Positions 14,961-43,137 of a DNA stretch of 64,000 nucleotides are shown here, one piece after another (within the stretch, counting starts at the first letter, position 1; each line of letters opens with the position of its first letter). The notes under the pieces are model-generated. The model was not told the origin of the DNA. It made no database searches and saw only the letters and a program-made list of their open reading frames with translations. Made by a program: the position numbers and the translations under genes. The stretch is from Puniceicoccales bacterium (GTDB lineage Bacteria > Verrucomicrobiota > Verrucomicrobiia > Opitutales > UBA9783): contig JAITAV010000024.1 in the NCBI GenBank assembly GCA_031283895.1, positions 10,980 through 74,979 on the forward strand. Direction: 5' to 3'.

Positions 14961-15694
14961 CATCTCCTCAAGTTTTTATCTTATGTGCCGGTGAAGGGCG
15001 GCGACTGCGGCCCCTCACCGAAGACAAACCTAAATGCTTGGTTCCTTATAGGAATAAACCGATTTTGCAGTACCAATTAGAAATTATTAAAACACTGCAA
15101 TTAAACGATGTTACCCTTATTGGAGGACATCGGCATGAAGTTTTGCCCAATACGTACGCCAAAATTGTCAATGCACGCTACGCAGAAACGAATATGCTGC
15201 ACAGTTTGTTCTGTGCAGAAAATAGGATGGATGCCTCGCGCGATATGATCGTTGCTTACGGCGACATCATTTATCACGCATCTGTTTTAAAGACATTGCT
15301 GGAAGCACACGATCCCATTGCAATTGTAACGGATGTAGATTGGGAACGCTACTGGCAAAATCGCATGGAAGATCCTTTACAAGATGCAGAAACGTTTCGT
15401 TGGGATCCCCATACACGTCGTATTTTCGAATTGGGAAGAAAACCTAAATTGCAATCCGACATTCAGGGCCAGTACATCGGCTTATTTAAAATCGACGCAT
15501 CGTACGTGACAACTTTTAAAACTTTCCATCATCATTTTTGTCAAACACATGCGAATGCAGAAAAAGCCTACATGACCGATTTTTTACAGTATCTCATCGA
15601 TCAGCAACAACCTGCATTCGGTATTCCCATCCACAACCGATGGGCGGAATTCGATACCGTACAAGATCTGCAAGTGACAGTTGATTTTTTATGA
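14957..15694 (+). CDS. sugar/phospho-substrate nucleotidyltransferase (cytidylyltransferase-like)
   Basis: ATGA coupling. FILCAGEGRRLRPLTEDKPKCLV is the GxGxRL NTP-transferase signature. Confidence 0.8.
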   Translation: MTSPQVFILCAGEGRRLRPLTEDKPKCLVPYRNKPILQYQLEIIKTLQLNDVTLIGGHRHEVLPNTYAKIVNARYAETNMLHSLFCAENRMDASRDMIVAYGDIIYHASVLKTLLEAHDPIAIVTDVDWERYWQNRMEDPLQDAETFRWDPHTRRIFELGRKPKLQSDIQGQYIGLFKIDASYVTTFKTFHHHFCQTHANAEKAYMTDFLQYLIDQQQPAFGIPIHNRWAEFDTVQDLQVTVDFL

Positions 15695-25269: not shown

Positions 25270-25461
25270 TCGATTGCTCTTTAAAAAAATGCTTTTGTCG
25301 CAATATGCAATCACAAATACTGAAAAAAGCCTACGATTGCTCTAAATTATGTGCAATCTTGGTCAATTAAGTAGCTTGATTTTAACCATCACTAGAAGAT
25401 TTGGGTGGACAAGTTGAGTGATATCTATTTCCATCTTAAATCCTAAGCATTAAGATTCATT

Positions 25462-26920: not shown

Positions 26921-26933
26921 TTCCCCATTTTCC

Positions 26934-28103
26934 ATGCAAGCAAAACGTCAAATCATCTTCTTTATTTTGCTCAACGTATGTTTGTTTACAAGTACAGTGC
27001 TATTTAATTACGTTATCGATCCCTTCTGCATCTTTCATAAACCCATTTTTAAAAAACCGATTTTTTTAAACCACGAGGTTTTTATGAATCTTGGACAAAT
27101 TGAAATTTTTCTCAAAAAAACGGACGATTATGATACCCTTTTGATAGGGACTTCGCATACAGAAAATTTCCTTGCGGATGAAATCACCCAAGCCTTAAAA
27201 AGCAAAGGAACGCTTAAATTATGTTTAAGCGGAGGATATCCGGTTGAATTGGAAGCAATCGTACAAAAAGCGCTGACAACAGGTAAAGTAAAAAATATTG
27301 TTTGGGGATTTGAATTATGTCAGTTTATTTTACCCGCTTATACACCGCATGAAAGTCGCATATTCCCGTACCATTTGTATAAAAATAAGTTGCCATTGTT
27401 ATTTGATGCACGCGTATTAAGGACGTCCCTTAAGCTACTATTATGGCATTGCCGGCTCAAAAATATTAAATTTTCATGGCATTACAACAATACGCTCAGT
27501 TCTGTGTATTTCTATCATGATCTACCCTACATTCTTGATATGCATAAATGTTTTGTTACTCCAGATACCTTAAAGAAAAGCCAAGCAACTCGTTATCGTT
27601 ATGATATGTTTCCATGCCCAAATTGGGATGCAACTTTTTCAGCCATTGGCACGCACCTGATTCCCATTATAGAAGCACATCCTGAAATTCAATTCTACAT
27701 CCCCATAATACCCTACAGTTGGATTTATTTTATTTCCAGAGATGTTAAAAATCTGGAAAAGATTATACTTTGCCAGCGCTACTTATGTAAGCGAACTTCT
27801 GCGTTTAAGAATACACGTTTGTACGCCTTTCACACATGTCAATTCCCGCACAATTTAGCCAACTACTATAACGAAACCCATTATCACCCCGACATTAATC
27901 GTTACATGTTGTACGCAATCCAGAATGATCGACATCGATTGACGATGGAAAATTTAGAACAATACGAACAAGCAATGATTGAAAATTTAAAGGCGTTCGA
28001 AATAAAAGATGCTTATCCTCATATGGATAGCCTCGAAGATATCATACGGCAAGAAGAAGCCAAATTATCCTCTCCGAATAAGCCACTGTTGAGCCACAAA
28101 TAA
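26934..28103 (+). CDS. N-terminally anchored protein downstream of the MBOAT gene (candidate AlgJ/DltD-role partner)
   Basis: Single N-terminal TM (IIFFILLNVCLFTSTVLF). Position immediately after the MBOAT stop. No catalytic motif confidently identified. Confidence 0.4.
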   Translation: MQAKRQIIFFILLNVCLFTSTVLFNYVIDPFCIFHKPIFKKPIFLNHEVFMNLGQIEIFLKKTDDYDTLLIGTSHTENFLADEITQALKSKGTLKLCLSGGYPVELEAIVQKALTTGKVKNIVWGFELCQFILPAYTPHESRIFPYHLYKNKLPLLFDARVLRTSLKLLLWHCRLKNIKFSWHYNNTLSSVYFYHDLPYILDMHKCFVTPDTLKKSQATRYRYDMFPCPNWDATFSAIGTHLIPIIEAHPEIQFYIPIIPYSWIYFISRDVKNLEKIILCQRYLCKRTSAFKNTRLYAFHTCQFPHNLANYYNETHYHPDINRYMLYAIQNDRHRLTMENLEQYEQAMIENLKAFEIKDAYPHMDSLEDIIRQEEAKLSSPNKPLLSHK

Positions 28104-29912
28104 GTTCCACAATTGTATTTCGTGGTTACACTTGCCGGACAAGTGTTCCTGCCAAAGTTGTTTGGCTTTTGTACGATCGATGTGATTCCAAAGCAGCGTA
28201 TGTGTCTCCAAATATTGTTCCAAAGTTGAACGGAGGGACGTACGCAACGATTGGCCAAGCGGCATACCAAATCCCATCTTAGGGCGATTCCACAAGGCTT
28301 TCGGCACATAACGTTCCAACACACGCTTGAGTAAGTATTTTTTTACACCTCCTTGAAACTTGCGTACCAAAGGGATTGACCAGGCAAAATCAACCAGATT
28401 GTAATCCAAAAAAGGTGCGCGTGTTTCCAAACCAACGGCCATGCTTGCTCGATCAACTTTGCACAAAACATCATCGTGCAGGTAGGTCCGCATATCAAGG
28501 TACATGACTTGTTCGGCATTATTCTGCAGGTGTGGATGTAACCGAAACCAAGTTTTTTCCAAAATAACGGGCCTATCAAAGTAAGTCATGCTATTAAGAT
28601 ACGTGGATAAAAAATCTTTACCTCGCAAACTCTTCACCGCTTTGTGTAATTTTAAATGCAGTAGGGGACATCGCTTCGAAAGTAAACGGCTCTCTATTGT
28701 TTCAAATAATGAAAGTATAGGGATAGGCAACCATTTGCGCAGTGTATCCAACCGAGGAACCCATTTATGTCGATGATAGCCAACAAATAACTCGTCACCT
28801 CCATCGCCGCCGATGGCAACCGTGACATGTTTTTTAAATAGTTTGGAAATGAGATACGTGGACAAAGCCGACGCATCGCCAAACGGTTCGTCATATATTT
28901 GTGTAATATCATTTGCATTTTCCAATACGGCATCTGGATCGACGAACAACGTTGTGTGATCCGTTTTTAGATGCTGCGCTATTGCCTCCGCATGCTTCGA
29001 TTCATCCCACGGAGAATTTTTAAAACCGACCGTAAACGTTTTTATCGGCTGCGTACTCCGAGCTTGCATTAAAGCCACCATCAACGAAGAGTCAATTCCC
29101 CCGGACAAAAATGCCCCCACGGGAACATCGGCCAACGTACGATCATATACGGATTGCCTCAACAGACGTTCCAATGCATCCACGCATTCATTTTCGGGTA
29201 AAACTACTCTCTGTCGATCTTCCAGCGTATTGTTTAGATCAAAGTATACAGTTTCTTTTATACCAGTGGTAGTAACCATCAGATGGTGCCCCGGGAATAA
29301 TTTTCGTGCACCTTTGTAAATTGAGTAAGGGCAAGGAATATAATTGAGGCATAAGTAAAGATCCAGAGCTGTTTCATCCACCGTTCGATCAAAATCCGGC
29401 ATTGGTAATAGGGCTTTCAATTCGGAACCAAACGCGAAATATTGTCCATCAACAAAGCTGTAATAAAGCGGTTTTTCTCCAAAACGATCGCGTGCAACGT
29501 ACAAAATTTTCTCCCGCGCATCGTAAAATGCAAACGCAAACATACCGTTAATCAATGGCAATGTTTTTGATACACCCAATTGAATGCACAGCTGCAATAA
29601 AACTTCCGTATCGTTGTGCGCTTCGCAAGCAATTCCTTGATTTTTTAGATATTGAGCTAACGTTTTGTAATTGTAAATTTCACCGTTAAAAACGAGTACA
29701 TAGCGTCCATCTTCTGAGCACATGGGCTGATGACCACGAGCACTTAAATCTATAATAGCTAAACGCCGTTGCCCTAGGCCGATCGACTCTTTGAGCCAAA
29801 TGCCTTGGTCGTCTGGGCCCCGGTGTGCCAATGACCGAGTCATTGCGGTAACGGTTGTTGCCAAATCATCAACATCCGACTTAAATCGCCACAAACCCGT
29901 TACACCACACAT
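28065..29912 (-). CDS. asparagine synthase (glutamine-hydrolysing)-family amidotransferase
   Basis: N-terminal MCGVTG nucleophile, RGPDD, PP-loop FLSGGIDSS. Located in a glycan operon, i.e. WbpS-like context. Confidence 0.88.
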   Translation of the reverse strand: MCGVTGLWRFKSDVDDLATTVTAMTRSLAHRGPDDQGIWLKESIGLGQRRLAIIDLSARGHQPMCSEDGRYVLVFNGEIYNYKTLAQYLKNQGIACEAHNDTEVLLQLCIQLGVSKTLPLINGMFAFAFYDAREKILYVARDRFGEKPLYYSFVDGQYFAFGSELKALLPMPDFDRTVDETALDLYLCLNYIPCPYSIYKGARKLFPGHHLMVTTTGIKETVYFDLNNTLEDRQRVVLPENECVDALERLLRQSVYDRTLADVPVGAFLSGGIDSSLMVALMQARSTQPIKTFTVGFKNSPWDESKHAEAIAQHLKTDHTTLFVDPDAVLENANDITQIYDEPFGDASALSTYLISKLFKKHVTVAIGGDGGDELFVGYHRHKWVPRLDTLRKWLPIPILSLFETIESRLLSKRCPLLHLKLHKAVKSLRGKDFLSTYLNSMTYFDRPVILEKTWFRLHPHLQNNAEQVMYLDMRTYLHDDVLCKVDRASMAVGLETRAPFLDYNLVDFAWSIPLVRKFQGGVKKYLLKRVLERYVPKALWNRPKMGFGMPLGQSLRTSLRSTLEQYLETHTLLWNHIDRTKAKQLWQEHLSGKCNHEIQLWNLFVAQQWLIRRG

Positions 29913-29954
29913 GGAATGGAATTTTTGCAAAACAATGCGCAAACACAACTTAAA

Positions 29955-30855
29955 TTATTCTTTTTTGTAAGCTATTGCACACCAATTAACATCCGGATCC
30001 GTTGAGAAAGAGACGTTGTGTAACCCACAGCGCATCATCATTTGAATGATGTCAGCTTTTGAAAAACGTTTTTCAAGACATGTTCCAAAACGGTCCAACG
30101 CGCAATTTCTCATGTTGTAAAACGACCCACCACGATGCGCACTTAAGGGAATATGCTTCACGTTAAAACTACATTTCTCCAGTATTTGAGCAAATTTCGC
30201 CAACGGCCAATAAACCAATAAGGCGATGCTATCCGTAACACACCTTTTTAGGAGGTGTGGCAAGTGACAAATGCATTTTCTCAGCAAATCACTGCACTGC
30301 CAAACAAAACGAAACCACCACGGCCTATTTTCAAAATTGTAGTACATGTAAACTAAAAATGGGGCACCCGGTTTCAATTTATCAACACAGATTTGCATGG
30401 CTTGTTCGGTGTTCGGAATGTGGTGCAAAACCCCTAAACAATAACCAAAATCTTGACTGTTATCCGCCAAAGGCATGTTGTCAATCGTCGTATTATGAAA
30501 AGCTATATTTGAAAAATTTTTCAATTTTTGCTTCGCGATTTCCAAAGCCGACGAAGGCTCTATACAGTTTAATTTTCCAACTTTGGGAGCCGCATACAAA
30601 GCCCAACGGCCATTGCCACATCCCGCATCAAATCCTTCTGCATTTCGATCAATTTTTTCCCAAGGGAAAATACTAAAATATTGGTTAAATTCTTTCTCTA
30701 AATCGTATTGAGGTCGCGTATCGTTTGTAAAATCGCACCATTCTCTCCCAAAGTGTTCAATAACCCTCTGGTCTCGATTGTCGATTGTCGATTGTCGATT
30801 GTCGATTGTCGATTGTCGATTGTCGATTGTCGATTGTCGATTGTCGATTGCTCAT
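29955..30855 (-). CDS. class I SAM-dependent methyltransferase, out of frame with its ATG as sequenced (phase OFF)
   Basis: The body frame encodes ...FDAGCGNGRWALYAAPKVGKLNCIEPS (motif I), CLGVLHHIP, LKPGAPFLVY. The only upstream ATG (30855) is separated from the body by 11 copies of a 7-nt repeat and is in a different frame. The ATG frame stops at 30757-30759. Confidence 0.7.
30774..30850 (-). repeat. perfect heptanucleotide tandem repeat, (CAATCGA)11 on the coding strand
   Basis: Counted directly: tcgattg x 11, 77 nt, no interruptions, starting 2 nt after the ATG-AGC of the methyltransferase gene. Confidence 0.97.
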
Positions 30856-30889
30856 GGAAATCATAGATTTTGCACATATCCCGTTGTTG

Positions 30890-31834
30890 TCAAAACAAAA
30901 ACGACATTTTGTCGACCATGCATTTTAACCCCTCTTCTAGGTTGACAGTTGGATACCACCCCAGTAAACGTCCCGCTTTTTCGGTATTGGCAAACGTATG
31001 CATCATGTCGGATGCGTTGAAGGGATGATGTTCAAGAACAGCTTTTTTATTCAAATAATATTCCAATAAACTTATCATTTCATGGATCGTGTGCGGACGT
31101 TCGTTGCCGAGGTTAATGATTTCATAACCCAGCGGCTTACTGGCCAAAGCAATGCCGCGTGCGATGTCGTCTATAAACGTAAAATCTCGTGATTGCATTC
31201 CATCTCCGTTCAACGGCAATGCTCTACCGGCCGCGATGCATTTCATGAATTTGTCCGGGCTCATGTCGGGACGTCCATAGGGTCCGTACACGGTAAAACA
31301 ACGCAAAATGGATACATCAATCCCATACAGATAATGATAGGTGTAACACAACATTTCGGCTGCTTTTTTGGAGGCTGCGTAGGGAGAAATCGGTTCATTG
31401 ACCGGTAAAGTTTCCACGAACGGCATCGCTTGCCCTGCGTACAAAGAGGATGTGGATGTAAAGACCAATTTTTTGGTTTTGTGAACGCGCATGCATTCTA
31501 GTAAATTAAGCAATCCGAGTACATTGGTGCGAATGTAGATGTCGGGCGTTTCCAAACTTGCACGCACTCCGGCACGCGCCGCAATATTGTAGACGGCATC
31601 GAAGGTATGTTGATTAAATAAATCTTGTAAAAATACTTTATCCTCAATATCCGCTTTCACAAACGTAAAATTACCTTTTAAAGCTTCGAGGTTTTTTAGT
31701 CGAAAACGTTTCAACTGCGGATCGTAATAGTCATTTAAGTTATCAATTCCAATTACGGAGACATTATCGCACAGGAGAAGCTCGGTCACTTTCGATCCAA
31801 TAAATCCAGCACAGCCTGTTACCAATACTTTCAT
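30890..31834 (-). CDS. NAD-dependent nucleotide-sugar epimerase (UDP-glucuronate 4-epimerase-like)
   Basis: MKVLVTGCAGFIGS, STSSLYG-like TSTSSLYAG, YAASKKAAE (YxxxK). ATGA overlap with the upstream GT. Confidence 0.8.
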   Translation of the reverse strand: MKVLVTGCAGFIGSKVTELLLCDNVSVIGIDNLNDYYDPQLKRFRLKNLEALKGNFTFVKADIEDKVFLQDLFNQHTFDAVYNIAARAGVRASLETPDIYIRTNVLGLLNLLECMRVHKTKKLVFTSTSSLYAGQAMPFVETLPVNEPISPYAASKKAAEMLCYTYHYLYGIDVSILRCFTVYGPYGRPDMSPDKFMKCIAAGRALPLNGDGMQSRDFTFIDDIARGIALASKPLGYEIINLGNERPHTIHEMISLLEYYLNKKAVLEHHPFNASDMMHTFANTEKAGRLLGWYPTVNLEEGLKCMVDKMSFLF

Positions 31835-32943
31835 GAACACGTATTTTGCACCGTTTGAAATATTGCGGCATTGACGGCGTGGATATCAAACTTTTTTTCA
31901 GCTAACTTGCGACTAGCTAATCCCATCGTATGTAATAATTCTGGCTGATGAATAATTTTTTCCATAGCGTTTAAAAGTGCTTCTGTACTGCGTGGTTGTA
32001 TCTTAAAACCATTTTCACCATCGATAACGGTCTCTTTGCAACCTACACTGTCCGTCGTAATGACAGGCCGTCCGCAAGCCAACGCTTCCAACAATGCCCG
32101 CGGCACGCCTTCACGATAATAAGAAGGGTATACAAACACAGAACTCTGCCTCATTTGCTCAGCCATATGTGAACAGTAGCCTATGAATTCTATGATGTTT
32201 GCGCATAGCTTTAATTGTTCTTCCGTAATAGCCGATGGATTTGTATCAATATGACCTGCCAACACAAAACGTACGTTCGGGTACTTCGTTTTTAGCTGTT
32301 GTGCCGCTTCAACATAATGAAATACACCCTTTTCTTCAATCAAACGTGCAGCCATAAAAAACGTCAACGTTGCCGGAAGTGACTGCGGTGTAAACGCCTG
32401 CAGATCTACACCGGTCCCGTTAACGACCGACGAGCGTACGTCATCCACCAATCCATGCTGTATAAAAAACACCCTATCATCCTGATTCTGAAAAAACACG
32501 TGCGTAAAAGCTTTAAAGCTCAATTTATACAAATACATACAAATACGTTTAACGAACGCACGTTTGCCCCCAGGTTGCTCAATGAAGGCATATCCCAATC
32601 CCGATACCAATCCATAGATGTTCTTAATCTTTAACCAACGAGACACAAAGCCACCATAAATATTCGGTTTGACGTTGCCAAAAAACACAATATCTGGCTT
32701 TTCTCGTTTGAGTAAGGTATGTATGTGCAGTAGCGTTTTTAAATTATTTAATAAGCCAACCGATGTACCACTAAATGCATCCAATGGAACAAAATTTACG
32801 GTGGGCAGTTGCTTTTGCCAAATAGATATTTCCTTTGCGGGCAGCCCCACCGAAACGGATAGTCCCTTTTGCGAAAACTCTTGCATTAACACATGCCGTA
32901 AATTAATCGCTCCTGGGTTGAATAAAAATAATATCTTTTTCAT
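31831..32943 (-). CDS. GT-B glycosyltransferase, family 4-like
   Basis: C-terminal EGVPRALLEALACGRPVITTDSVGCKETVIDGENGF (E-x7-E region). Confidence 0.85.
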   Translation of the reverse strand: MKKILFLFNPGAINLRHVLMQEFSQKGLSVSVGLPAKEISIWQKQLPTVNFVPLDAFSGTSVGLLNNLKTLLHIHTLLKREKPDIVFFGNVKPNIYGGFVSRWLKIKNIYGLVSGLGYAFIEQPGGKRAFVKRICMYLYKLSFKAFTHVFFQNQDDRVFFIQHGLVDDVRSSVVNGTGVDLQAFTPQSLPATLTFFMAARLIEEKGVFHYVEAAQQLKTKYPNVRFVLAGHIDTNPSAITEEQLKLCANIIEFIGYCSHMAEQMRQSSVFVYPSYYREGVPRALLEALACGRPVITTDSVGCKETVIDGENGFKIQPRSTEALLNAMEKIIHQPELLHTMGLASRKLAEKKFDIHAVNAAIFQTVQNTCS

Positions 32944-33238
32944 GAATTTATTATGATCGTACATGCTTAAATAAATATAGCCAATTGTCTAGACTGTATT
33001 AAATTCTGAAAAACATATTCGCATATGTTGATGAAATTATATCAAGGGTAGCTTTGATGATTGGTAATTTTTAATCAAAAGATAGCGACCACATATTTCA
33101 TTAAACTGCATAAGGTTTAATTTCTAACGTGGTCCATTCGACGAATAACCACTCCAAATGTTAAATTTTAAATCCTTATGATATTAGAATGCTTACATAC
33201 ATCTTTTCCGGAGCAAATCCATAGAGCACACCCCTACG

Positions 33239-34471
33239 TTAAGGGTTTTTGTGCTTATCTAAGGAAGGAGCTTTTGCGTAATACAATAATCCCAACAACA
33301 CCAGCCAAACGGGAATAAATGCTTCACTGTGCCTATTTAAATTAAGATAATTGAAAGCCTCACATCCTGTTATAGTATAAGCCAGTAGAAAGACGAGCAA
33401 CATTACAATTTGCTGTATTTGTTCTCTCCTAAAATATTTTCTGTTTTTTATACATAAGTACATGATATATAACATCATCGTTAGGAAGAAAATATTTGTT
33501 TTTACGGCATATATCCACCCCAATTTGGAACCCTGGGGTGCTTTGTGAAAAAACTGCTCGGAATTGGTAATCATCGGAGCAAACCAGGCATTGCCAATCC
33601 TTTTCAAAGAGCTACCATTATCAGGAATGTAACTGTTCCCCAACGACCTGAACCACAACGGACCCCTATTTAATATTTTTGCCTTAAAAAAGTATTCCAA
33701 ATGCCCTTTTGCATGAAACCAATGGAATAATACCCCACTTATAAAGATTAACAGGAACACATTTTTGGGGAACTTAAGAAGGATAAAAGAACATAGCAGG
33801 CAGCAGACAAAAGAACCATAATAGTGTTTTTGGGCAAGAAAACATAACGTCAAACTTCCCAATATCCCAAAAAGATTTCGCTTGACCAACATCCATAAAA
33901 ATAAAGATTGTGCAAATAGACAAAAAGTTGAGGTTAGAGGGAGTGGGCAGGACAGAAAAAATCTTGGCGCTACTAGCCAAAAAGTGTAAAAACAAATACG
34001 CGTAAAACGTTGCGATGCACCCAAAAATTGCAACGCCTGATAAAAGAAAAACAACCCCCACAAAGATAAACTGATCATTAACAACCCTGTACTAAACAGA
34101 CTTAGATAAAAATGATCTCCAAAGAAGCTTCTTATCTTAGAGAAAAGCCATAGGTGTTGTAAATTCCCATACACCAGCCTAGTGACTTGCCCAATTACGT
34201 CTTTCAAAGTAACGGAAAAATAATCCATCTTGTATTGAGAATGAAACTTAGCAAGATCTTTTGGGTAATAATAGCCTTCGTGATCCAATGCAATATGAAA
34301 TAAGTCATAGTTCCTCCATACATACATGTGATAGACTAAAGAAAAAAGTTGTATAAAAACCGTCAAATAAACAAATATCCAAAACCATCGTTGCTGCGTT
34401 TTTTTACAAACAAAAACTAGTGTCGCAAGACATGTTATAACACATACAACTGTTGCCAATAAAACGCTCAT
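33239..34471 (-). CDS. polytopic membrane protein (GT-C-like or polymerase-like), function unknown
   Basis: ~10 predicted TM helices. Abuts the Wzy-like gene with no gap. Confidence 0.45.
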   Translation of the reverse strand: MSVLLATVVCVITCLATLVFVCKKTQQRWFWIFVYLTVFIQLFSLVYHMYVWRNYDLFHIALDHEGYYYPKDLAKFHSQYKMDYFSVTLKDVIGQVTRLVYGNLQHLWLFSKIRSFFGDHFYLSLFSTGLLMISLSLWGLFFFYQALQFLGASQRFTRICFYTFWLVAPRFFLSCPLPLTSTFCLFAQSLFLWMLVKRNLFGILGSLTLCFLAQKHYYGSFVCCLLCSFILLKFPKNVFLLIFISGVLFHWFHAKGHLEYFFKAKILNRGPLWFRSLGNSYIPDNGSSLKRIGNAWFAPMITNSEQFFHKAPQGSKLGWIYAVKTNIFFLTMMLYIMYLCIKNRKYFRREQIQQIVMLLVFLLAYTITGCEAFNYLNLNRHSEAFIPVWLVLLGLLYYAKAPSLDKHKNP

Positions 34472-35854
34472 CTATATTTCCTTACGTAAACTCAACGGAA
34501 GCAGCCAATATAAATATGGATTCCCTGTTATTGATCCCATAAAACAGTTTTGGAGAAAAATTAAAATAAAAAAAGAAAGAAATAGAAATGTTCTTGGAGA
34601 AAGTTGCTGTCTTTTACACAAAAAACCAAAGCAAACAATAACAGGTAAAAAGAATAGAAGTATGCCTACTAGGCCTAAAGTAGATAATATTTCAAAAAAA
34701 ATATTATGTGGACTAGTGCGAGAATTTTCAAAACCTATACCGAATTGGGGCCTCATTGACCAAACATAAAAAGATTGCAATAGCATAATTTGTCTCGGAG
34801 AACTAAAAATAGGATTCTTAATGGACTCATCCATATAAACAGGGGGAAATATCCATTGCCTCATCGATAAATAATTAGATTTTATTTGTTCCTGACTTAA
34901 TGCAAAACTACTCGCATATTTTATTGTTCTTTTGGTAAATGCTTTATTCTTGCAAATCCATAAAGAACAGATAATGAAACAACACAAAGCAACTATTTTC
35001 AATATCTTGTTATTCCTTATAAATATAAAAAATGTACTCAGATATATGGCCAAAGTTAACAGAAAAAATAAATTCGATTGCCTATAATGTACCTGCCAAT
35101 TTTCCCACAAAGATAAAAAACAAGATAGAACTAGATTAACTTTTAAAAAACGAAATTTTGCTTTCTCAAAATATAAAAATGCAAATATTGCAAAAATGTA
35201 ACATTGTTTTAGTACCAATCCATTCAGATAAGTTATTTGCTGATCATCATAAAGGTAGTAACATTTAAAGCCATGTAAAAGCAAGTAACAAATTATGAAC
35301 ACCTGCGAACAACATATAAGAATATACCACTTTTTTAAAAACTTTTTATCGGCAAAATTCACAATAAAAAAAGCTACCATTAGAGTAAAAAACAATGTAA
35401 ACAAACGTAACCCTGCAGAACTTCTCCTCCATACCTCATTCTCGCCCAAATGATAATTATAATAACAATAACAACAATCCGGGGTTAACCAATAATTAAA
35501 CAAGATGTAAATACCAAATACTACGTATAAACCTAAGCATATGTTGGCTTCCTTATTATTTTTAATAATATGACTTTGGTTGCACGTTTTGCTAATAACA
35601 AGATACGCCATAGCACAAATAAATAAAGTAAAACAAAAAATCGTCACTTTACCTAATAACACAAGCCCCCAAGGCAACTTTGAAAAAATGGAAGGCCATG
35701 CCACAATTCCGATACATAGGGTAGGAAGAAAAAATAAGCCCCACGTAGATAATAAAAATCCCAATTCTCCAATCCGTAAAATAAACGACCTTATTTTTAC
35801 ATTTTCGTTATGGTTACACTTCATGATATGATAACAAATTTTACAAATCCACAA
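34472..35854 (-). CDS. O-antigen polymerase/ligase-family membrane protein (Wzy_C domain)
   Basis: Polytopic, with the motif SPHNIFFEILSTLGLVGILLF typical of the Wzy/WaaL family. Confidence 0.65.
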   Translation of the reverse strand: MWICKICYHIMKCNHNENVKIRSFILRIGELGFLLSTWGLFFLPTLCIGIVAWPSIFSKLPWGLVLLGKVTIFCFTLFICAMAYLVISKTCNQSHIIKNNKEANICLGLYVVFGIYILFNYWLTPDCCYCYYNYHLGENEVWRRSSAGLRLFTLFFTLMVAFFIVNFADKKFLKKWYILICCSQVFIICYLLLHGFKCYYLYDDQQITYLNGLVLKQCYIFAIFAFLYFEKAKFRFLKVNLVLSCFLSLWENWQVHYRQSNLFFLLTLAIYLSTFFIFIRNNKILKIVALCCFIICSLWICKNKAFTKRTIKYASSFALSQEQIKSNYLSMRQWIFPPVYMDESIKNPIFSSPRQIMLLQSFYVWSMRPQFGIGFENSRTSPHNIFFEILSTLGLVGILLFFLPVIVCFGFLCKRQQLSPRTFLFLSFFILIFLQNCFMGSITGNPYLYWLLPLSLRKEI

Positions 35855-36578
35855 TTACATCATTGCATCCCGGAATAGGGTAAGGCTGCAAAGGGTGTTT
35901 TCGCAAAACAACTTGATATAGGTTAGGGACATCGGAGGACCACATTTTGACAATATCGGATAAATGTTTTAAGGTCCAAGATCTAGCAAATGAATTTGTA
36001 AATGTAAAGAAAATTAATCGAATGTCCAGCCATAGGGAAGTGTGTTGTATGTATAGAAGCGCCAAACGGGATTTCCATGGACGTTCTATCTGTGCATATA
36101 CAAGGTCCGGATTGGTGGCTCCTTCGAGAATTTCACCTTCATCCGAAAACACGATGGAAGCTAGATCGGTAATGCCCGGCTTAACGGTCAATATATCTTT
36201 TTCAACATCCGTATAACGATTGACCTCGATGGGAACTTGCGGTCTAGGCCCTACCCAATTCATATCTCCTTTGATAACATTAATAATTTGAGCTAACTCA
36301 TCCACTTTAAATCGACGCACCCATTGACCTATGGGTGTAATCCGAGGATCATCGTTGGCAGTCGAATCTATTTTATACCTATGGGCATCGGCAACCATCG
36401 AACGCAATTTAATCATGTTAAAAAGTTTCCCATTCCTACCGACACGCGGTGCCACATAAAACGGATTCTTCCGATCGTACAGAAAAATCAGGAATGCAAA
36501 CCATAAAACAATCGGTAAACAGACAACACCCGCCATCATATTACAAATCCATCCACAAATACGACGCATAAAAATCAT
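35841..36578 (-). CDS. second phosphoglycosyl transferase (bacterial sugar transferase family)
   Basis: NPFYVAPRVGRNGKLFNMIKLRSM, DELAQIINVIKGDMNWVGPRPQ. ATGA overlap with the E1 beta stop. Confidence 0.85.
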   Translation of the reverse strand: MIFMRRICGWICNMMAGVVCLPIVLWFAFLIFLYDRKNPFYVAPRVGRNGKLFNMIKLRSMVADAHRYKIDSTANDDPRITPIGQWVRRFKVDELAQIINVIKGDMNWVGPRPQVPIEVNRYTDVEKDILTVKPGITDLASIVFSDEGEILEGATNPDLVYAQIERPWKSRLALLYIQHTSLWLDIRLIFFTFTNSFARSWTLKHLSDIVKMWSSDVPNLYQVVLRKHPLQPYPIPGCNDVIVDL

Positions 36579-37549
36579 AACATTGCTTTAACGTGTTGGC
36601 AAACTTGCTCCACCGTTGGGTAGTAAATTTTCTCAAGTGCTCTGCTCGTAGGTGCTGGTGCATCGACCAACGTAATTCTTTGAGGATTCTTTTTTAATAG
36701 CTTTAAATCCATAGTTTCAAGTGTTTTTGTAATAACTTCCGCAGTCAATCCACACGAAGCCCAACCACCATCGACCACCAATAAACGACCTGTTTTTTCA
36801 ACCGAATGTCTAACAACATTGATTTTCAATGGATTCAATACACGCAAATCAATCACTTCACACCGAGTACCCTGTAGAGTCAATTGTTCTGCAGCTTGCA
36901 TACATAAATGCGTACTATAACCTGCTCCTACTAGAGTTATGTGTTGCCCTTCTCGTATACACTTGGATTCTATATTATTTAAAGATAGTTCCTGTATTTC
37001 CGTCACAAGTGATGTTGTCTCATATAACCAACGATCATCTATATAAATAACTGGGTCATCACATAAAGTTGCGGCAATTAACAAATCATGTGCATCTTGT
37101 ACAGAATAAGGCATTACAACTCTTAACCCAGGTATATGCATCAACCATGCATGAAGTGCTTGTGAATGTTGCGCGCCTTGCTCACCACCGCGATTGATAA
37201 TTAAACGAGCTGTCAATGGAACATGAGACTGTCCTCCAAACATGTGTGACCATTTTGCAGCTTGATTGACCAATTGATCAAAAGCTAAAATTGCAAAATC
37301 CATTCTAGGGTGAACACAGACAGGACGCATTCCATTGAGAGCTGCCCCCACACACATACCTGTAACACCTAGCTCTGAAATGGGTGTGTCGATAATACGA
37401 CCTTCTCCGTAAGTAACGTCTAAACCTATCATTGATGTACCAACGTACCAAGGACTCCATACACCTTGACCTATAACAAAAACATTATCATAATGCTTCA
37501 GTAAATAATCAAAACCCAAACGAATACTTTCGGCATAATTTAATAACAT
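36575..37549 (-). CDS. 2-oxoacid dehydrogenase E1 beta-like subunit (transketolase Pyr + C-terminal domains)
   Basis: VFVIGQGV, IDTPISELGVTGMCVGAALNGMRP, LRVLNPL, LLVVDGGW. Confidence 0.85.
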   Translation of the reverse strand: MLLNYAESIRLGFDYLLKHYDNVFVIGQGVWSPWYVGTSMIGLDVTYGEGRIIDTPISELGVTGMCVGAALNGMRPVCVHPRMDFAILAFDQLVNQAAKWSHMFGGQSHVPLTARLIINRGGEQGAQHSQALHAWLMHIPGLRVVMPYSVQDAHDLLIAATLCDDPVIYIDDRWLYETTSLVTEIQELSLNNIESKCIREGQHITLVGAGYSTHLCMQAAEQLTLQGTRCEVIDLRVLNPLKINVVRHSVEKTGRLLVVDGGWASCGLTAEVITKTLETMDLKLLKKNPQRITLVDAPAPTSRALEKIYYPTVEQVCQHVKAML

Positions 37550-37556
37550 AATATTT

Positions 37557-38549
37557 TCAGTTCTTATATACCCAACGTAACAATTTGTCTTCGGTAGCAT
37601 AAGGAGCCTGCAAAGCTATTTCCCAAGCACACTGAATACGCTTTCGTATTTCTTCTTTTAAAATATCAAAACCTTCCTCTGAAATTAATGCTTGTTCCAA
37701 CATAGGCTTATAAAGACGCGTAACAGGATCACAGTGCTGTTTCCAAAACTCTAAATCTTCCGAACGTTTCAATCCTACATCCACATCTTCGAGATGTCCA
37801 ACATGTCCTTTCCAACGATACGTCATCACTTCAACAAAGTAAGGAACGCATTTTGTGCGTATTTTACCGATGATTAGTTTTAGTTTACGATAGAGTAATG
37901 TTACATCATTTCCATCCAATTGTATATGGTTAATGTTATGTGCCTGAGCAAAACGTACGGTACTAGAAGCTGTTTGCCGTTGAAGTATGTGTAAATGGCT
38001 TGCAAACAGATTATTTTCGCACACAAAACAAACTGGCAACTGCATTTTTGCAGCTAGATTAAAGGTCTCGTGCATGACCCCTTCTTCAGTGGCGCCATCA
38101 CCAAAAAAAGCAACGGCAACCGAAGACATATTGCGCATTTTCATTGCTAAAGCAGCACCCGCAGCAATCGGTATCGTAGCACCCACAATGGGAACAGATC
38201 CGCCAAAACCTTTCGATTCTTTAATTAAATGCTGAGACCCCCCCATACCTTTAGAACATCCAGATTCCTTACCTAAAATTTCACTTATCAAGTCTTCAAT
38301 ATCGTCTGTCATTGCTAAATAATGGTTATGGGAACGGTGAGTTCCGTAAACGCGATCTGATTTTGTTAGACACTCTGACAAAGCAACCGGCGCTGCCTCT
38401 TGCCCAACAGCCAGGTGGCATGGACACTTAATATCTCCACTACCAACCTTTTGGGCAATCCATTCTTCTGTTTCACGGATTATTAACATTTTATGCAAAA
38501 GCCGGAACAATGCATTACTTGATAGGCCACTGATATCTGAATAATGCAT
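37557..38549 (-). CDS. 2-oxoacid dehydrogenase E1 alpha-like subunit (ThDP-binding)
   Basis: ThDP motif VAFFGDGATEEGVMHETFNLAAKMQLPVCFVCENN, plus YRWKGHVGH. Confidence 0.85.
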   Translation of the reverse strand: MHYSDISGLSSNALFRLLHKMLIIRETEEWIAQKVGSGDIKCPCHLAVGQEAAPVALSECLTKSDRVYGTHRSHNHYLAMTDDIEDLISEILGKESGCSKGMGGSQHLIKESKGFGGSVPIVGATIPIAAGAALAMKMRNMSSVAVAFFGDGATEEGVMHETFNLAAKMQLPVCFVCENNLFASHLHILQRQTASSTVRFAQAHNINHIQLDGNDVTLLYRKLKLIIGKIRTKCVPYFVEVMTYRWKGHVGHLEDVDVGLKRSEDLEFWKQHCDPVTRLYKPMLEQALISEEGFDILKEEIRKRIQCAWEIALQAPYATEDKLLRWVYKN

Positions 38550-38555
38550 AGTTAT

Positions 38556-39671
38556 CTATAAAAACCTACTTATTGTTTCACAAATATAATCCACTTCATC
38601 GTCGGTAACGGACGTATTCAATGGGAGAATGAGACAGCGTTTGAATAACAATTCAGTCCGAGGCAAGTGAGAAATGTCAAAATGCATATCCTTTACCAAT
38701 GCCTTAATTTGATGTAAGGCGCATCCTCCCCATTGGATGATTGTCTCGATACCACGTTCTCTAAGGAAATCTCTCAACGCATCTCTATTCTCGGCTTCAA
38801 TCTCAAAATTTTGGTAAATATCAAAATGCTTGGCATCAACGTTGGGAGCCGGTGGCAAAGTAACCTCGGGTATTGAAGCTAACCGATTGTAGTATCGTTG
38901 CGCAATTTCACGACGACGTTGCATCGTCTGTGGGTAATGTTTAAATTTGGCCAACAAAACGGCCGCCTGCACATTATCTAAACGAGAATTAATACCCCAC
39001 ATACAAACTTGATTTGTTTTGGGATCGCGTCCATGATCTCGCATGCATACAATTGCTTGATAAATAGCCGGATCGTCGGTTAAAACAATACCACCATCGC
39101 CAAAGCAACCTAAAACCTTTGCTGGATAAAAACTGATGGATCCCGTTTTCCCCCATGTACCCGCGCACCGATTTAAGTATTTGGATCCCAAAGCTTGAGC
39201 CGCATCCTCTAAAATCACCAAATGATACTTGTCGGCAATCGTTTGCAAACGATCCATTTCGCACGTACGACCGTTCAATTGAGTTGGTATAATGGCTTTC
39301 GTTTTCTGGGTAATTGCAGCTTCCACCTTGCTGACATCCATCAAATGATCGTCGCCGCAATCCACTAAGACCGGAATGGCTCCCAACCAGCTTGCCGCCG
39401 TGGCCGTTGCAATAAAGGTATGTGAGGCCATAATTACTTCATCACCTCTGCCAATCCCGCATGCCTTCAGCATTAAAATAAGACTGTCGGTTCCATTCCC
39501 TACACCGATGGCGTATTTTGCACCCGTAAAATCGGCAATTGCTTGCTCAAAATCTTTGAGCTCATCTTGCATAATGAAAGCTCCCTTATTTAAAACAGAT
39601 TGCAATGCCCGATCGACGTCGACTTTAAATTCGTTGTACAGAAAATCGTAGCGAAAATAAGGAATTTCCAT
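38556..39671 (-). CDS. DegT/DnrJ/EryC1/StrS-family sugar aminotransferase
   Basis: GVGNGTDSL, ILEDAAQALG, SFYPAKVLGCFGDGG (PLP lysine). Confidence 0.87.
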   Translation of the reverse strand: MEIPYFRYDFLYNEFKVDVDRALQSVLNKGAFIMQDELKDFEQAIADFTGAKYAIGVGNGTDSLILMLKACGIGRGDEVIMASHTFIATATAASWLGAIPVLVDCGDDHLMDVSKVEAAITQKTKAIIPTQLNGRTCEMDRLQTIADKYHLVILEDAAQALGSKYLNRCAGTWGKTGSISFYPAKVLGCFGDGGIVLTDDPAIYQAIVCMRDHGRDPKTNQVCMWGINSRLDNVQAAVLLAKFKHYPQTMQRRREIAQRYYNRLASIPEVTLPPAPNVDAKHFDIYQNFEIEAENRDALRDFLRERGIETIIQWGGCALHQIKALVKDMHFDISHLPRTELLFKRCLILPLNTSVTDDEVDYICETISRFL

Positions 39672-39672
39672 A

Positions 39673-40491
39673 TTATTTTTGCACTTTAGGACCTTTGGCA
39701 CAAAAGACAAACTTAAAAGCATATTTTTTAAGAAAAGGGAATACGTCATCCAGCCTATCCACCCACTTTGCCGTGTAAGCTTCTCCAATTAAGTACTTTA
39801 AAAACGGTCCCATAAATGCAAACGTACCGCAGTATTCGATTTCAAACGACTGAAAACGAGATCGTATCTTATCCAGCGTCGGTTTTTTAGGTACCCCTGT
39901 AACGGTTTGTTTAGTGGTGTAATGAAACCAGTAATTGAGCTGACGCTTTAAGTTGAATAAGGGGTTATATCCGTAGGTATCTACTGCGATAAAGGCACCA
40001 TCCGGTTTGAGCCAACGGCATATTTTTTCCAGCACGACATCGAGATTTAAATACGATAAGCTCCCCGACATGCAAATCATGTCGAAAAATTCATCTTTAA
40101 ACTGGCACTGTTCTGAATCACCTACTTCAAAGCGGAGATTTGAGAGCTGTCTTTTTTTTAATTCCCTGACGGCAACCTGAATGCTTTCTGCTGAATAATC
40201 AACACCCAATACGGTCCCATGAATCAGTTCTGCAATACGGAAGGTAAATTCTCCCATGCCACAACAAAGGTCAAGTACTTGGATGGGTCTCGGTAGTAAA
40301 GATCCGCAGCGGTGTATCATCGTCTCGTAGATACGGTACGGTTTTTGCAAGTATTTTGGGAAAGCACCCATGGAAAAACGACAACTGCCTATATTTTTCA
40401 AAGATTGCTTTTGATACCAAACTTTTTCGTCATTTTTTTCACTGTCCGACAATTGCATATGATATTGTTTACATAGACTGCTTCTCACCAT
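39673..40491 (-). CDS. class I SAM-dependent methyltransferase
   Basis: Motif I VLDLCCGMGEFTFRIAE, then GVDYS and FDMICMSGSL. First gene of the long minus-strand operon. Confidence 0.75.
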   Translation of the reverse strand: MVRSSLCKQYHMQLSDSEKNDEKVWYQKQSLKNIGSCRFSMGAFPKYLQKPYRIYETMIHRCGSLLPRPIQVLDLCCGMGEFTFRIAELIHGTVLGVDYSAESIQVAVRELKKRQLSNLRFEVGDSEQCQFKDEFFDMICMSGSLSYLNLDVVLEKICRWLKPDGAFIAVDTYGYNPLFNLKRQLNYWFHYTTKQTVTGVPKKPTLDKIRSRFQSFEIEYCGTFAFMGPFLKYLIGEAYTAKWVDRLDDVFPFLKKYAFKFVFCAKGPKVQK

Positions 40492-40731: not shown

Positions 40732-43137
40732 ATGAAAAGGTTCTTACTTCCTCTCGTCGGATTTCTACTCGGCAATCTAAGTGTTTTTGCAGGTGAAGCC
40801 GACTTAATCGTTCCGAACATCAGACAGGCGAGTCCAGGCAACTATACGCTTTTGCTCGTGGGTCTCTTCATTTCTGTCGTCGGTGTCATTTTTGGGTTCC
40901 TTGAATTTTCAAAAATTCAAAAATTGGAAGTTCACAAAAAAATGGCAGATGTCGGAAACACCATCTTTGAAACCTGCAAGACGTACCTCATTCAACAAGG
41001 TAAGTTCCTTGTTCTTTTGGAAATTTTAATTGGGCTGTGCATTGCATTCTACTTTGGTTACCTGCAAAAAATGGAGACCACCAATGTAGCCATCATTTTA
41101 GCCTGGTCTGTGATCGGTATTATGGGATCCTACTTTGTTGCGTGGTTCGGTATTCGCATGAACACTTTGGCCAACGCACGCACGGCATTTGCTTCACTCA
41201 AAGGAGATCCTTTAAATTTACTTAATATCCCACTTAAAGCGGGTATGAGTATCGGAGTTTTACTCGTTTCAGTAGAATTGATTATGATGCTAACGATTCT
41301 ACTTTTTGTTCCCGGGCATATTGCGGGCGCCTGTTTTGTCGGTTTTGCCATCGGAGAAAGTTTAGGCGCTTCTGCATTGCGCGTTGCGGGAGGTATTTTC
41401 ACAAAAATAGCCGATATTGGTTCCGACTTAATGAAAATCCAATTTAAAATTAAGGAAGATGATCCCAGAAATCCAGGTGTTATCGCCGACTGCACCGGAG
41501 ATAACGCAGGAGATTCCATTGGACCTACGGCGGATGGATTTGAAACTTACGGTGTAACGGGTGTTGCCTTGGTAAGTTTCATTTTATTGGGTGTAAACCT
41601 TGAACATCAGGTACAATTGCTCACCTGGATCTTCACCATGCGATTTTTAATGATTGCCACTTCCGTCATTGCCTATTGGATTAACGGGTCCATCTCTAAA
41701 TCGTACGCCCAAAATACAAAAAAATTTGACTGCGAAAAACCGCTCACAAATCTTGTCTGGTTGACATCCGTTCTGTCCATTGTAATGACATTTGGCGTCA
41801 GTTACTTCTTGCTCAATCAATTGGAGAACAATTTGTGGCTTACGCTCTCTTTGATTATTTCGTGTGGGACTTTGGGATCTGCCCTTATCCCAGAATTTAC
41901 GAAGATATTTACTTCTCCAAAGGCTAAACATACGGAAGAAGTGGTAACCGCATCCCGCGAGGGTGGATCATCGTTAACGATTTTGTCAGGCCTTGTGTCG
42001 GGTAATTTTTCTGCATTTTGGACAGGTATGGTCATCGTATTTCTCATGGGCTTGGCTTATTTTGCAAGCACGTTTATTCCGGAGGCTGCCATGATTTATC
42101 CGTCTGTATTTGCTTTTGGATTGGTTGCATTCGGATTTTTGGGTATGGGCCCCGTTACCATTGCCGTTGATTCCTACGGCCCGGTTACGGATAATGCGCA
42201 ATCGATCTACGAATTGTCTCTCATTGAAGAAACTCCCAATGTCGTGGAAGAAATTCAAAAAGAGTATGGATTTAAACCCAATTTCGACATCGCCAAAGAT
42301 TATCTTGAAGCCAATGATGGTGCAGGAAATACGTTTAAAGCAACCTCAAAACCGGTTCTCATCGGTACGGCGGTTGTCGGTGCAACCACCATGATTTTTT
42401 CTTTAATCTTGGTCATTAAAAATACACTCGGTATCCAACCGGAAACGGTACTCAACGTGCTCAATCCTTACACGATTCTCGGATTGCTTACGGGAGGCGC
42501 CGTTATCTATTGGTTTTCTGGCGCTTCGTTGCAAGCCGTTACTACGGGAGCCTACAGGGCAGTTGAATTTATCAAAAATCACATAAAATTAGGTGAAAAA
42601 GATGAAAAATCTGCCAATCTAGCAAACTCAAAAGAAGTTGTTAAAATCTGTACGCAGTATGCCCAAAAGGGTATGGGGAATATTTTTGTCGCCCTGTTTG
42701 CATTTGCATTGTCATTTGCTTGCCTGTCAGCGCCTGTTATCAATAACGACTCTGTATCGTTTTTCGTGAGCTATTTAATTGGCATTGCACTCTTTGGACT
42801 CTTTCAGGCGTTATTTATGTCCAATGCAGGTAGTTGCTGGGACAATGCGAAGAAAATTGTTGAATGCGATTTGAAAGAAAAAGGAACGGACCTTCACGCC
42901 GCAACTGTGGTCGGCGATACGGTCGGGGATCCATTCAAAGATACTTCGTCCGTTGCCATGAACCCCATTATTAAATTCACGACGCTGTTTGGCCTTTTGG
43001 CAATGGAAATCGCCATTAGCGAATCCTTTAAGGATATGGCCTCCACAGCTGGCTGGATCTTACTTGGCGTAGCACTTGTATTTGTTTATCGCTCATTCTA
43101 CGCCATGAGAATTCCTCAAAAAGGCAAGGAAAAGTAA
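40732..43137 (+). CDS. hppA: membrane-bound ion-translocating pyrophosphatase
   Basis: GAGG RBS. DCTGDNAGDSIGPTADGFETYG, GDTVGDPFKDTSSVAMNPIIKF. GNTFKATSK has Lys where K+-dependent enzymes carry Ala, suggesting the K+-independent type. Confidence 0.95.
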   Translation: MKRFLLPLVGFLLGNLSVFAGEADLIVPNIRQASPGNYTLLLVGLFISVVGVIFGFLEFSKIQKLEVHKKMADVGNTIFETCKTYLIQQGKFLVLLEILIGLCIAFYFGYLQKMETTNVAIILAWSVIGIMGSYFVAWFGIRMNTLANARTAFASLKGDPLNLLNIPLKAGMSIGVLLVSVELIMMLTILLFVPGHIAGACFVGFAIGESLGASALRVAGGIFTKIADIGSDLMKIQFKIKEDDPRNPGVIADCTGDNAGDSIGPTADGFETYGVTGVALVSFILLGVNLEHQVQLLTWIFTMRFLMIATSVIAYWINGSISKSYAQNTKKFDCEKPLTNLVWLTSVLSIVMTFGVSYFLLNQLENNLWLTLSLIISCGTLGSALIPEFTKIFTSPKAKHTEEVVTASREGGSSLTILSGLVSGNFSAFWTGMVIVFLMGLAYFASTFIPEAAMIYPSVFAFGLVAFGFLGMGPVTIAVDSYGPVTDNAQSIYELSLIEETPNVVEEIQKEYGFKPNFDIAKDYLEANDGAGNTFKATSKPVLIGTAVVGATTMIFSLILVIKNTLGIQPETVLNVLNPYTILGLLTGGAVIYWFSGASLQAVTTGAYRAVEFIKNHIKLGEKDEKSANLANSKEVVKICTQYAQKGMGNIFVALFAFALSFACLSAPVINNDSVSFFVSYLIGIALFGLFQALFMSNAGSCWDNAKKIVECDLKEKGTDLHAATVVGDTVGDPFKDTSSVAMNPIIKFTTLFGLLAMEIAISESFKDMASTAGWILLGVALVFVYRSFYAMRIPQKGKEK

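Follow-up and report, generated by a model that had tools for sequence, protein, structure and literature searches.

We analyzed a 64,000-nucleotide stretch (the window) of contig JAITAV010000024.1, which comes from a termite-gut Puniceicoccales bacterium (Verrucomicrobiota) and is also present in a termite-gut metagenome run. Within it, adjacent genes encode the alpha and beta subunits of an enzyme resembling the E1 component of pyruvate dehydrogenase (PDH). Our analysis suggests, at a probability of roughly 0.6, that this pair is no component of a dehydrogenase complex but an E2-independent thiamine diphosphate (ThDP) carboligase of the kind called alpha-KADH2, which would make the branched priming sugar of a surface polysaccharide. 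That the pair is a carboligase dedicated to a glycan pathway is a broader statement, which we consider likely, while a product bearing specifically an aminoethyl branch falls somewhat short of an even chance. The chemistry and the enzyme type are known, and E2-less E1 pairs that branch sugars have so far been known only from the antibiotics of actinomycetes. What is new is the widespread genetic and biological setting, in which such genes are routinely annotated as pyruvate or acetoin dehydrogenase.

The E1 pair and its operon

The region from 36575 to 39671 contains the genes for a DegT-family aminotransferase and the two E1 subunits, all on the minus strand. They belong to an operon that runs in the order methyltransferase (MT1), DegT, E1 alpha, E1 beta, phosphoglycosyl transferase (PGT) and then a Wzy_C-like membrane protein. 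The first five genes are as follows.

39673..40491, minus strand: MT1, a class I S-adenosylmethionine-dependent methyltransferase, first gene of the operon (Pfam Methyltransf_31/25/11)
38556..39671, minus strand: DegT/DnrJ/EryC1-family pyridoxal phosphate aminotransferase (PF01041, E 2e-100)
37557..38549, minus strand: E1 alpha, ThDP-binding, 330 aa (PF00676, E 8e-56)
36575..37549 (or 37600), minus strand: E1 beta (Transket_pyr and Transketolase_C)
35841..36578, minus strand: small monotopic PGT, Bac_transf (PF02397, E 1e-45)

These genes are tightly packed. MT1 ends 1 nt from the start of DegT, the DegT stop lies 6 nt from the E1 alpha ATG, a 7-nt spacer (AAATATT) separates the E1 alpha stop from the E1 beta ATG at 37549, and E1 beta and PGT overlap by 4 nt (ATGA). 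The E1 beta start at 37549 is backed by alignments of homologues; the start of the longest open reading frame (ORF), an ATG at 37600, would give a 44-nt overlap with E1 alpha. The initial annotation had placed the pair between a DegT and a PGT gene with 7-nt and overlapping junctions, and the gene coordinates and the Pfam and NCBIfam matches agree with this. The aminotransferase keeps the lysine of its SFYPAK motif, and the matches of the PGT in the PDB are the WbaP catalytic domain and PglC.

The E1 alpha sequence FFGDGATEEGVMHETFNLAAKMQLPVCFVCENN has the complete ThDP/Mg motif (GDGATEEG...ENN) noted in the initial annotation, of which GDG (150-152) and ENN (178-180) are invariant across the family alignment. 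When aligned with human PDHA1, the histidine of YRxxGH is kept and the serine phosphorylation site is replaced by valine. E1 beta aligns end to end with human PDHB and keeps both TPISELG, with the ThDP-activating glutamate, and GAQHSQ, with its histidine. As judged from these alignments, the catalytic residues for decarboxylation (the alpha histidine of YRWKGH, the beta glutamate of TPISELG and the beta histidine of GAQHSQ) are intact. The domains of the pair are PF00676 plus PF02779/PF02780, and not those of the single-chain acetolactate-synthase type (TPP_enzyme_N/M/C) found in YerE-like lyases.

Profile searches returned PDH E1 alpha and beta as the best matches of the pair, human PDH E1 as the best match in the PDB, and weak matches to DXS and transketolase. 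Both subunits scored below the equivalog cut-offs: E1 alpha reached 262 bits against TIGR03182 (cut-off 394), and E1 beta reached 240 bits against PRK09212 (NF006667; cut-off 321) and 235 bits against NF008854 (cut-off 454).

No partner subunits accompany the pair. Pfam searches of the window ORFs of at least 369 aa, and of ten smaller ones, detected no lipoyl, 2-oxoacid_dh or Pyr_redox domain, and tblastn with the E2 and E3 proteins of two genuine complexes as queries gave no match in the 64-kb window. The same queries found no E2 or E3 in any of 88 related loci (L001-L088), while they did match the control plasmid operons L089, L092 and L093. The earlier observation that no lipoyl-E2 or E3 gene lies near the pair is thus borne out.

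Spread and phylogeny of the cassette

To determine how widely the pair is distributed, the family alignment was searched against one genome per species (185,579 species). Genomes of 504 species encode a relative with signature peptides of the E1 alpha family, GMGGS[MQ]H[LI][IV] or TYRW[KR]GHVG, the canonical PDH equivalents of which are GKGGSMH and TYRYHGHS; Aquirufa and Sandaracinomonas are among the carriers of the cassette. The best 80 loci are distributed over Verrucomicrobiota, Bacteroidota, Planctomycetota, Bdellovibrionota, Gemmatimonadota, Chloroflexota, Actinomycetota, Spirochaetota, Margulisiibacteriota, Marinimicrobia and the alpha-, beta- and gamma-Proteobacteria, including metagenome-assembled genomes (MAGs) of Legionellaceae and Coxiellaceae.

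Synteny was counted by tblastn in 86 non-redundant loci from at least 11 phyla. Loci of no fewer than 11 phyla repeat the order DegT, E1 alpha, E1 beta, PGT. It is a cassette conserved across phyla, whose glycan context is no quirk of one genome. E1 beta was directly 3' of E1 alpha in every locus scored (85/85). Of 79 loci, 58 had a DegT orthologue (at least 40% identity) directly upstream of E1 alpha, and 68 of 86 had one on the same strand within 3.5 kb; for the PGT orthologue, 61 of 74 loci had it directly downstream of E1 beta and 77 of 86 had it no farther than 3.5 kb away. At least 31 of the 86 loci have a methyltransferase within 3.5 kb of the pair. In L003, L004, L005 (Aquirufa), L006 and L007, the closest relatives in the databases, E1 alpha and E1 beta are followed by a small PGT, and the last three of these loci have DegT and a methyltransferase upstream. 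Orthologues of MT1 (48-76% identity) adjoin DegT or E1 alpha in L006, L007, L010 and L011.

The window E1 alpha protein is 91-93% identical to those of two Puniceicoccales MAGs. Two close relatives, L009 and L010, were observed to lack parts of the operon. L009 has no counterpart of window positions 40328-38991, which hold most of MT1 and two thirds of DegT from its 5' end, or of 35988-33604, with the Wzy-like gene and a part of the gene after it; the PGT gene of L009 looks split. L010 lacks 35833-34509, and its E1 alpha match is interrupted. These deletions represent either rapid decay of the locus or a change of serotype, or else errors in MAG assembly.

In a neighbour-joining tree, which included few outgroups, all cassette E1 alphas formed one clade on a long stem, apart from the E2-linked E1s of L089, L092 and L093. 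The pair thus does not group with E2-linked acetoin or pyruvate dehydrogenase E1s; a tight grouping within acetoin dehydrogenase clades was an outcome that the initial annotation had named as speaking against its reading. Identity to the window E1 alpha was 46-93% for cassette members and 34-36% for the E2-linked proteins. Compared with the PDH E1 alpha2beta2 enzymes (human, Geobacillus) and AcoA/AcoB, the cassette enzyme has the same fold, ThDP/Mg motif and catalytic histidine and glutamate at an identity of 34-36%; it differs in its missing E2/E3 partner, its scores below the cut-offs, its separate clade, its glycan operon and an alpha loop that reads GHVGHxxDxDVG rather than the GHSMSDP of PDH-type E1.

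The distance matrices of DegT, E1 alpha, E1 beta and PGT were correlated (r 0.37-0.66), and the observed value was reached in 0 of 999 permutations. This suggests that the four genes travel together, although shared phylogeny of the organisms contributes to the correlation.

Two pairs that likewise lack an E2, one on an Azospirillum plasmid and one on a Streptomyces plasmid (36-39% identity), are the nearest outgroups of the cassette clade in the tree, with the E2-linked E1s farther out. The Streptomyces pair (H1/L091) was considered as a reference of the AviB type and dropped; its neighbours encode a P450, an adenylating enzyme and an acyl-CoA dehydrogenase, with no sugar genes among them, and it was used solely as a tree outgroup. 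The Azospirillum pair (L090; A. ramasamyi plasmid NZ_CP029835.1, 41425-46084) lies in an E2-less set of NAD(P) oxidoreductase, E1 alpha, E1 beta and DegT, with about 10 further Azospirillum plasmids of this kind. Its E1 alpha and DegT are 36% and 29% identical to those of the window, and the set is a second, independent lineage in which an E1 is paired with a sugar aminotransferase.

Predicted chemistry and alternative readings

The neighbors of the pair in other loci offer clues to its chemistry. In about 10 loci, an aldo-keto reductase (AKR) occupies the position of DegT (AKR-type cassettes include L022, L027, L029, L047, L048, L070 and L077), and both are present in one locus only. This exchange implies that the transaminase and the reductase are alternative ways to process one ketone. 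A membrane-anchored PglF/CapD-type 4,6-dehydratase for UDP-N-acetylhexosamine (UDP-HexNAc) was found in 19-23 of the 86 loci, in 14 of them directly after the PGT. Four AKR-type loci (L022, L027, L029 and L047) have the order glycosyltransferase, methyltransferase, AKR, E1 alpha, E1 beta, PGT, and in L027 this block ends with PglF, the sole recognised ketone-forming enzyme there. If the AKR of L027 used the ring ketone made by PglF, the E1 pair would be left without an electrophile to accept its unit. If the E1 pair uses the ring ketone, a new branch ketone becomes available to the AKR or, in other cassettes, to DegT.

Comparison with solved structures provided a further clue. The window DegT scored 212-256 bits against the 3-aminotransferases QdtB, DesV and WbpE (246, 234 and 212 bits, respectively), compared to 112 and 105 bits against the 4-aminotransferases PglE and PseC. 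That the enzyme is not of the PglE/PseC type is evidence against a plain bacillosamine-type module. Across the loci compared, the core cassette contains no acetyltransferase, and neither a 3,4-ketoisomerase nor an aldehyde-forming enzyme is conserved in it.

From these comparisons we infer the donor, the acceptor, the position of the branch and the order of the steps as follows. A keto sugar would be made first, family-wide most likely UDP-4-keto-6-deoxy-HexNAc from the PglF-type dehydratase. The E1 pair would decarboxylate pyruvate to hydroxyethyl-ThDP and transfer the two-carbon unit onto the ring ketone (C-4) of the nucleotide-activated 4-keto-6-deoxy sugar, giving a tertiary alcohol with an acetyl branch. 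DegT or the AKR presumably tailors the branch ketone, with DegT converting it to a 1-aminoethyl group and the AKR of the sister cassettes to a 1-hydroxyethyl group, and MT1 probably methylates the branched product. The translationally coupled PGT would then load this branched sugar, as its 1-phosphate, onto undecaprenyl phosphate to prime a surface polysaccharide of the Wzy type, and the polymer would be built by the glycosyltransferases and the Wzy-like protein. In the window, only two genes could supply the keto sugar, which would be dTDP-4-keto-6-deoxy-glucose.

18600-19658, plus strand: RmlB-type dTDP-glucose 4,6-dehydratase (GDP_Man_Dehyd 280 bits; STDEVFG motif)
19642-20523, plus strand: RmlA-type thymidylyltransferase (NTP_transferase 220 bits)

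This scheme has precedents in antibiotic biosynthesis. AviB1/B2 and Pau11/12 are proposed to form a C-4 acetyl branch from pyruvate on keto sugars, and the AKR Pau7 has been shown in vitro to reduce the branch ketone of paulomycin (PMC4753412). A 2025 review groups the E2-less pairs as alpha-KADH2 and describes in-vitro carboligation to a ketone by KbDH-alpha/beta; the known pairs branch at C-3 or C-4 and are apparently limited to pyruvate-derived two-carbon units, and the fate of the branch ketone varies by product, being reduced, methylated or oxidised in some and transaminated in kibdelomycin (PMC12247030). The amycolose of kibdelomycin is an alpha-aminoethyl-branched sugar (PMC10055692). 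AlmDI/II is a further pair of the alpha-KADH2 class.

The initial annotation had likened the pair to AviB1/AviB2 and had predicted the transfer of a two-carbon unit. The separate clade, the missing E2/E3, the conserved glycan cassette and the literature on E1 pairs (PMC4753412, PMC12247030) support that predicted chemistry. Its further prediction of a C-branched sugar in a surface glycan is likewise supported, with one refinement. The close coupling of DegT to the pair, and its exchange for an AKR in some loci, point to an aminoethyl branch as in amycolose here, rather than to a yersiniose- or eurekanate-like hydroxyethyl or acetyl branch.

The closest parallel of this kind is the KbDH-alpha/beta pair with its transaminase in kibdelomycin/amycolamicin biosynthesis, in which, as in the cassette, an E2-less E1 pair is coupled with an aminotransferase and a pyruvate-derived acetyl branch is transaminated to alpha-aminoethyl (PMC12247030, PMC10055692). 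The likeness drawn here is one of pathway. The KbDH system belongs to a secondary-metabolite cluster of an actinomycete, branches a dTDP-dideoxy sugar at C-3 and has no PGT, whereas the cassette lies in surface-polysaccharide operons of many phyla with a priming PGT and, often, a PglF-type dehydratase. Likewise in pathway, the AKR-type sister cassettes mirror the stand-alone AviB1/AviB2 pair and Pau11/Pau12 with Pau7. Those systems are from Streptomyces antibiotic pathways, however, and Pau7 works on the finished antibiotic once glycosyl transfer has taken place, while the AKR or DegT of the cassette is encoded together with nucleotide-sugar and PGT functions.

Two types of surface-glycan systems are comparable in other respects. 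YerE/YerF of yersiniose A, ErwE, MMAR_2332 and MygE represent ThDP-dependent C-C branching in a surface glycan, at C-4 of a 4-keto-6-deoxy sugar and followed by a ketoreductase (PMC9306805, PMC12247030), but the YerE-like enzymes are single-chain ThDP (flavo)proteins of the acetolactate-synthase type that act on CDP-3,6-dideoxy-4-keto-glucose, and the cassette enzyme is a two-subunit E1. The PglF-PglE-PglD-PglC pathway for di-N-acetylbacillosamine (diNAcBac) and WcfR-WcfS for acetamido-amino-trideoxygalactose (AATGal), like the cassette, combine a dehydratase, a DegT enzyme and a small monotopic PGT to provide an unusual priming sugar. Relative to PglF-E-D-C, the cassette has the E1 pair in the place of the acetyltransferase, and its DegT is not PglE-like.

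Several points weigh against a branching carboligase of this kind in the window. There is no PglF-like gene in it, and its only keto-sugar-forming genes, RmlA/RmlB, are 17 kb away in another gene group; their functional tie to the E1 pair is uncertain. The action of DegT on an exocyclic ketone is itself something that we infer, and the methyltransferase is also present in AKR-type cassettes and therefore need not be an N-methylase. In addition, the close relatives L003, L004 and L009 have neither DegT nor an AKR beside the pair, and the 2025 review attributes the branched sugars of lipopolysaccharide (LPS) to the unrelated YerE-like enzymes and places alpha-KADH2 pairs in secondary metabolism (PMC12247030).

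An alternative that we regard as unlikely, yet worth keeping in view, is that the pair is a carboligase with other partners: a different 2-oxo acid as donor, a C-3 ketone as acceptor, or an aldehyde attacked in the manner of DXS to give a chain-extended sugar. E1, DXS and transketolase have a common fold, reflected in the weak profile matches; alpha-KADH2 pairs branch at C-3 as well as C-4 (PMC12247030); DegT resembles 3-aminotransferases; and RmlA/RmlB occur in the window as well as in some other loci. On the other hand, the restriction of known pairs to pyruvate units (PMC12247030), the lack of a conserved 3,4-ketoisomerase or aldehyde-forming enzyme and the recurrence of the PglF-type dehydratase as the source of the ketone all count against this reading.

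We consider it quite improbable that the pair is the acyl donor of a bacillosamine-like module, in which PglF would form the 4-ketone, DegT the 4-amine, and the E1 pair would acylate that amine from a 2-oxo acid via acyl-ThDP. The order DegT-E1a-E1b-PGT(-PglF) does resemble PglE-PglD-PglC-PglF, and the core cassette is without an acetyltransferase. However, DegT is far nearer to 3-aminotransferases than to PglE or PseC, the formation of acyl-ThDP from pyruvate requires an oxidant, which the cassette does not encode, cassettes of the AKR type offer no amine to acylate, and such a reaction is not known from any E1 enzyme.

We also consider it improbable that the cassette is a decaying remnant, which this termite-gut lineage is losing and which has ceased to yield a product. 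The missing MT1 and most of DegT in L009, with its apparently split PGT, the interrupted E1 alpha of L010 and a second methyltransferase gene (MT2) that is out of frame in the window are consistent with decay. But the five cassette ORFs of the window are full length with the invariant residues of the family intact, the frame shift of MT2 lies within a repeat as is typical of reversible switching, and MAG assemblies can add frame errors.

Least probable is that the pair is a housekeeping or catabolic E1 of pyruvate or acetoin dehydrogenase, in the glycan operon by accident and with its E2/E3 encoded elsewhere: its best matches are to PDH, all residues required for decarboxylation are present, and E1 genes in the LPS region of Coxiella burnetii have been read in this way (PMC5423948), but the embedding between DegT and PGT in at least 11 phyla makes a distant E2/E3 very unlikely, and the absence of E2/E3 from all 88 loci, the sub-cut-off scores of both subunits, the clade apart from E2-linked E1s and the replaced regulatory serine of the alpha loop likewise stand against it.

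The C. burnetii genes in question, CBU_0686 along with CBU_0692 and CBU_0693, lie in or near the LPS O-antigen region and have been read as pyruvate dehydrogenases that were gained by horizontal transfer and supply acetyl-CoA (PMC5423948). Possibly they encode sugar-modifying E1s instead. In a second homologue search with the Coxiellaceae E1 alpha of L077, made with CBU_0692 in view, neither this protein nor the other two appeared among the best 120 matches, all of which were at least 54% identical. A published description of the Legionella LPS locus does not mention E1 genes, and our literature search found nothing relevant on E1 pairs within loci for O-antigen or capsule or on 4-C-branched HexNAc sugars.

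More tentatively, we propose that DegT-E1a-E1b-PGT may be an unrecognised, horizontally mobile module of about 500 species in more than 10 phyla, which would make a new class of priming sugar, 4-C-(1-aminoethyl) 6-deoxy-HexNAc, sometimes methylated and, in AKR variants, branched with hydroxyethyl. On that reading, alpha-KADH2 chemistry of the antibiotic type would take place in ordinary cell-surface glycans and would give them a cationic, sterically unusual first residue. The cassette genes carry the label "pyruvate/acetoin dehydrogenase E1" in all annotations and are open to misreading as energy metabolism, and the recognition of an E2-independent, glycan-linked clade would correct metabolic reconstructions. 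The clade predicts that many uncultured bacteria, and some cultured ones, have an undescribed family of C-branched amino sugars in their surface polysaccharides; these could be new antigens or determinants of phage or immune recognition, as well as candidate substrates for monotopic PGTs without an assigned specificity. It would also extend the alpha-KADH2 carboligases, which are prized as biocatalysts for chiral tertiary alcohols, from about 120 actinomycete-type clusters to hundreds of diverse sequences that act on UDP-sugars. An in-silico survey of about 120 alpha-KADH2 clusters was reportedly made by Krug et al. in 2024 and may already list Gram-negative cassettes.

Remaining genes of the window

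Downstream of PGT, the operon continues with the Wzy_C-like gene, a second membrane protein, a family 4 glycosyltransferase (GT4), an epimerase, MT2 and an amidotransferase, and has its 3' end at 28065.

34472..35854, minus strand: polytopic membrane protein with a weak match to Wzy_C, O-antigen polymerase/ligase (PF04932, E 8e-5, below the gathering score)
33239..34471, minus strand: hydrophobic polytopic membrane protein (no Pfam or NCBIfam match)
31831..32964, minus strand: GT4 glycosyltransferase (Glycos_transf_1, Glyco_trans_4_2)
30890..31840, minus strand: short-chain dehydrogenase/reductase epimerase, UDP-sugar 4-epimerase type (Epimerase and GDP_Man_Dehyd Pfam matches)
29955..30865, minus strand: MT2, second methyltransferase (Methyltransf_11 on a 214-aa ORF)
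30774..30850, no strand assigned: perfect heptanucleotide repeat, (CAATCGA)x11, within the 5' coding end of MT2
28065..29948, minus strand: asparagine-synthase-like amidotransferase, last gene of the operon (TIGR01536 455 bits; TIGR03108 536 bits)

The Wzy_C-like gene, missing in the close relatives L009 and L010, has a GC content of 0.32. The epimerase at 30890-31840 was considered as the missing 4,6-dehydratase and ruled out, as it has an STSSLY motif and not the TDE of dehydratases. At the other end of the operon, MT1 is divergent from a proton-pumping pyrophosphatase (H+-PPase) gene (40732..43137, plus strand), with 240 nt between them. A scan for promoters and terminators gave counts not above those of shuffled sequence.

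The heptanucleotide repeat in MT2 is a candidate phase-variation switch. With its 11 copies, the MT2 frame stops after 35 aa, whereas 10 or 13 copies would give a protein of 300 or 307 aa that aligns with the homologue in L004. The repeat of L010 has at least 16 copies. The k-mers of the repeat were about 10 times deeper than its flanks in the metagenome, which suggests that the same heptanucleotide repeat is present at other loci.

Several other loci in the window were noted. A second priming-sugar set on the plus strand, without an E1 pair, consists of genes for a methyltransferase (2962-3702), a DegT aminotransferase (3654-4892) and a Bac_transf PGT of 194 aa (4898-5482), so the module is present in this genome in a plain form as well as in the form with an E1 pair. 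The operon is flanked by a UDP-glucose/GDP-mannose dehydrogenase gene (23917-25314, minus strand) and by genes for an MBOAT O-acyltransferase (25736-26920) and an overlapping 402-aa partner with no assigned family (26895-28103). Together with the epimerase and the AsnB-like amidotransferase, the dehydrogenase, the MBOAT protein and its partner suggest that one and the same glycan contains an amidated uronic acid and is O-acylated. Lastly, a teichoic-acid-like gene group includes a 1002-aa fusion (11353-14361) of MobA-like nucleotidyltransferase, PPDK_N and PEP-utilizer mobile domains, an architecture that is unusual for such a group. Its neighbors encode a CDP-glycerol-type glycerophosphotransferase (10197-11438), a GATase (14313-14960) and a nucleotidyltransferase (14888-15694).

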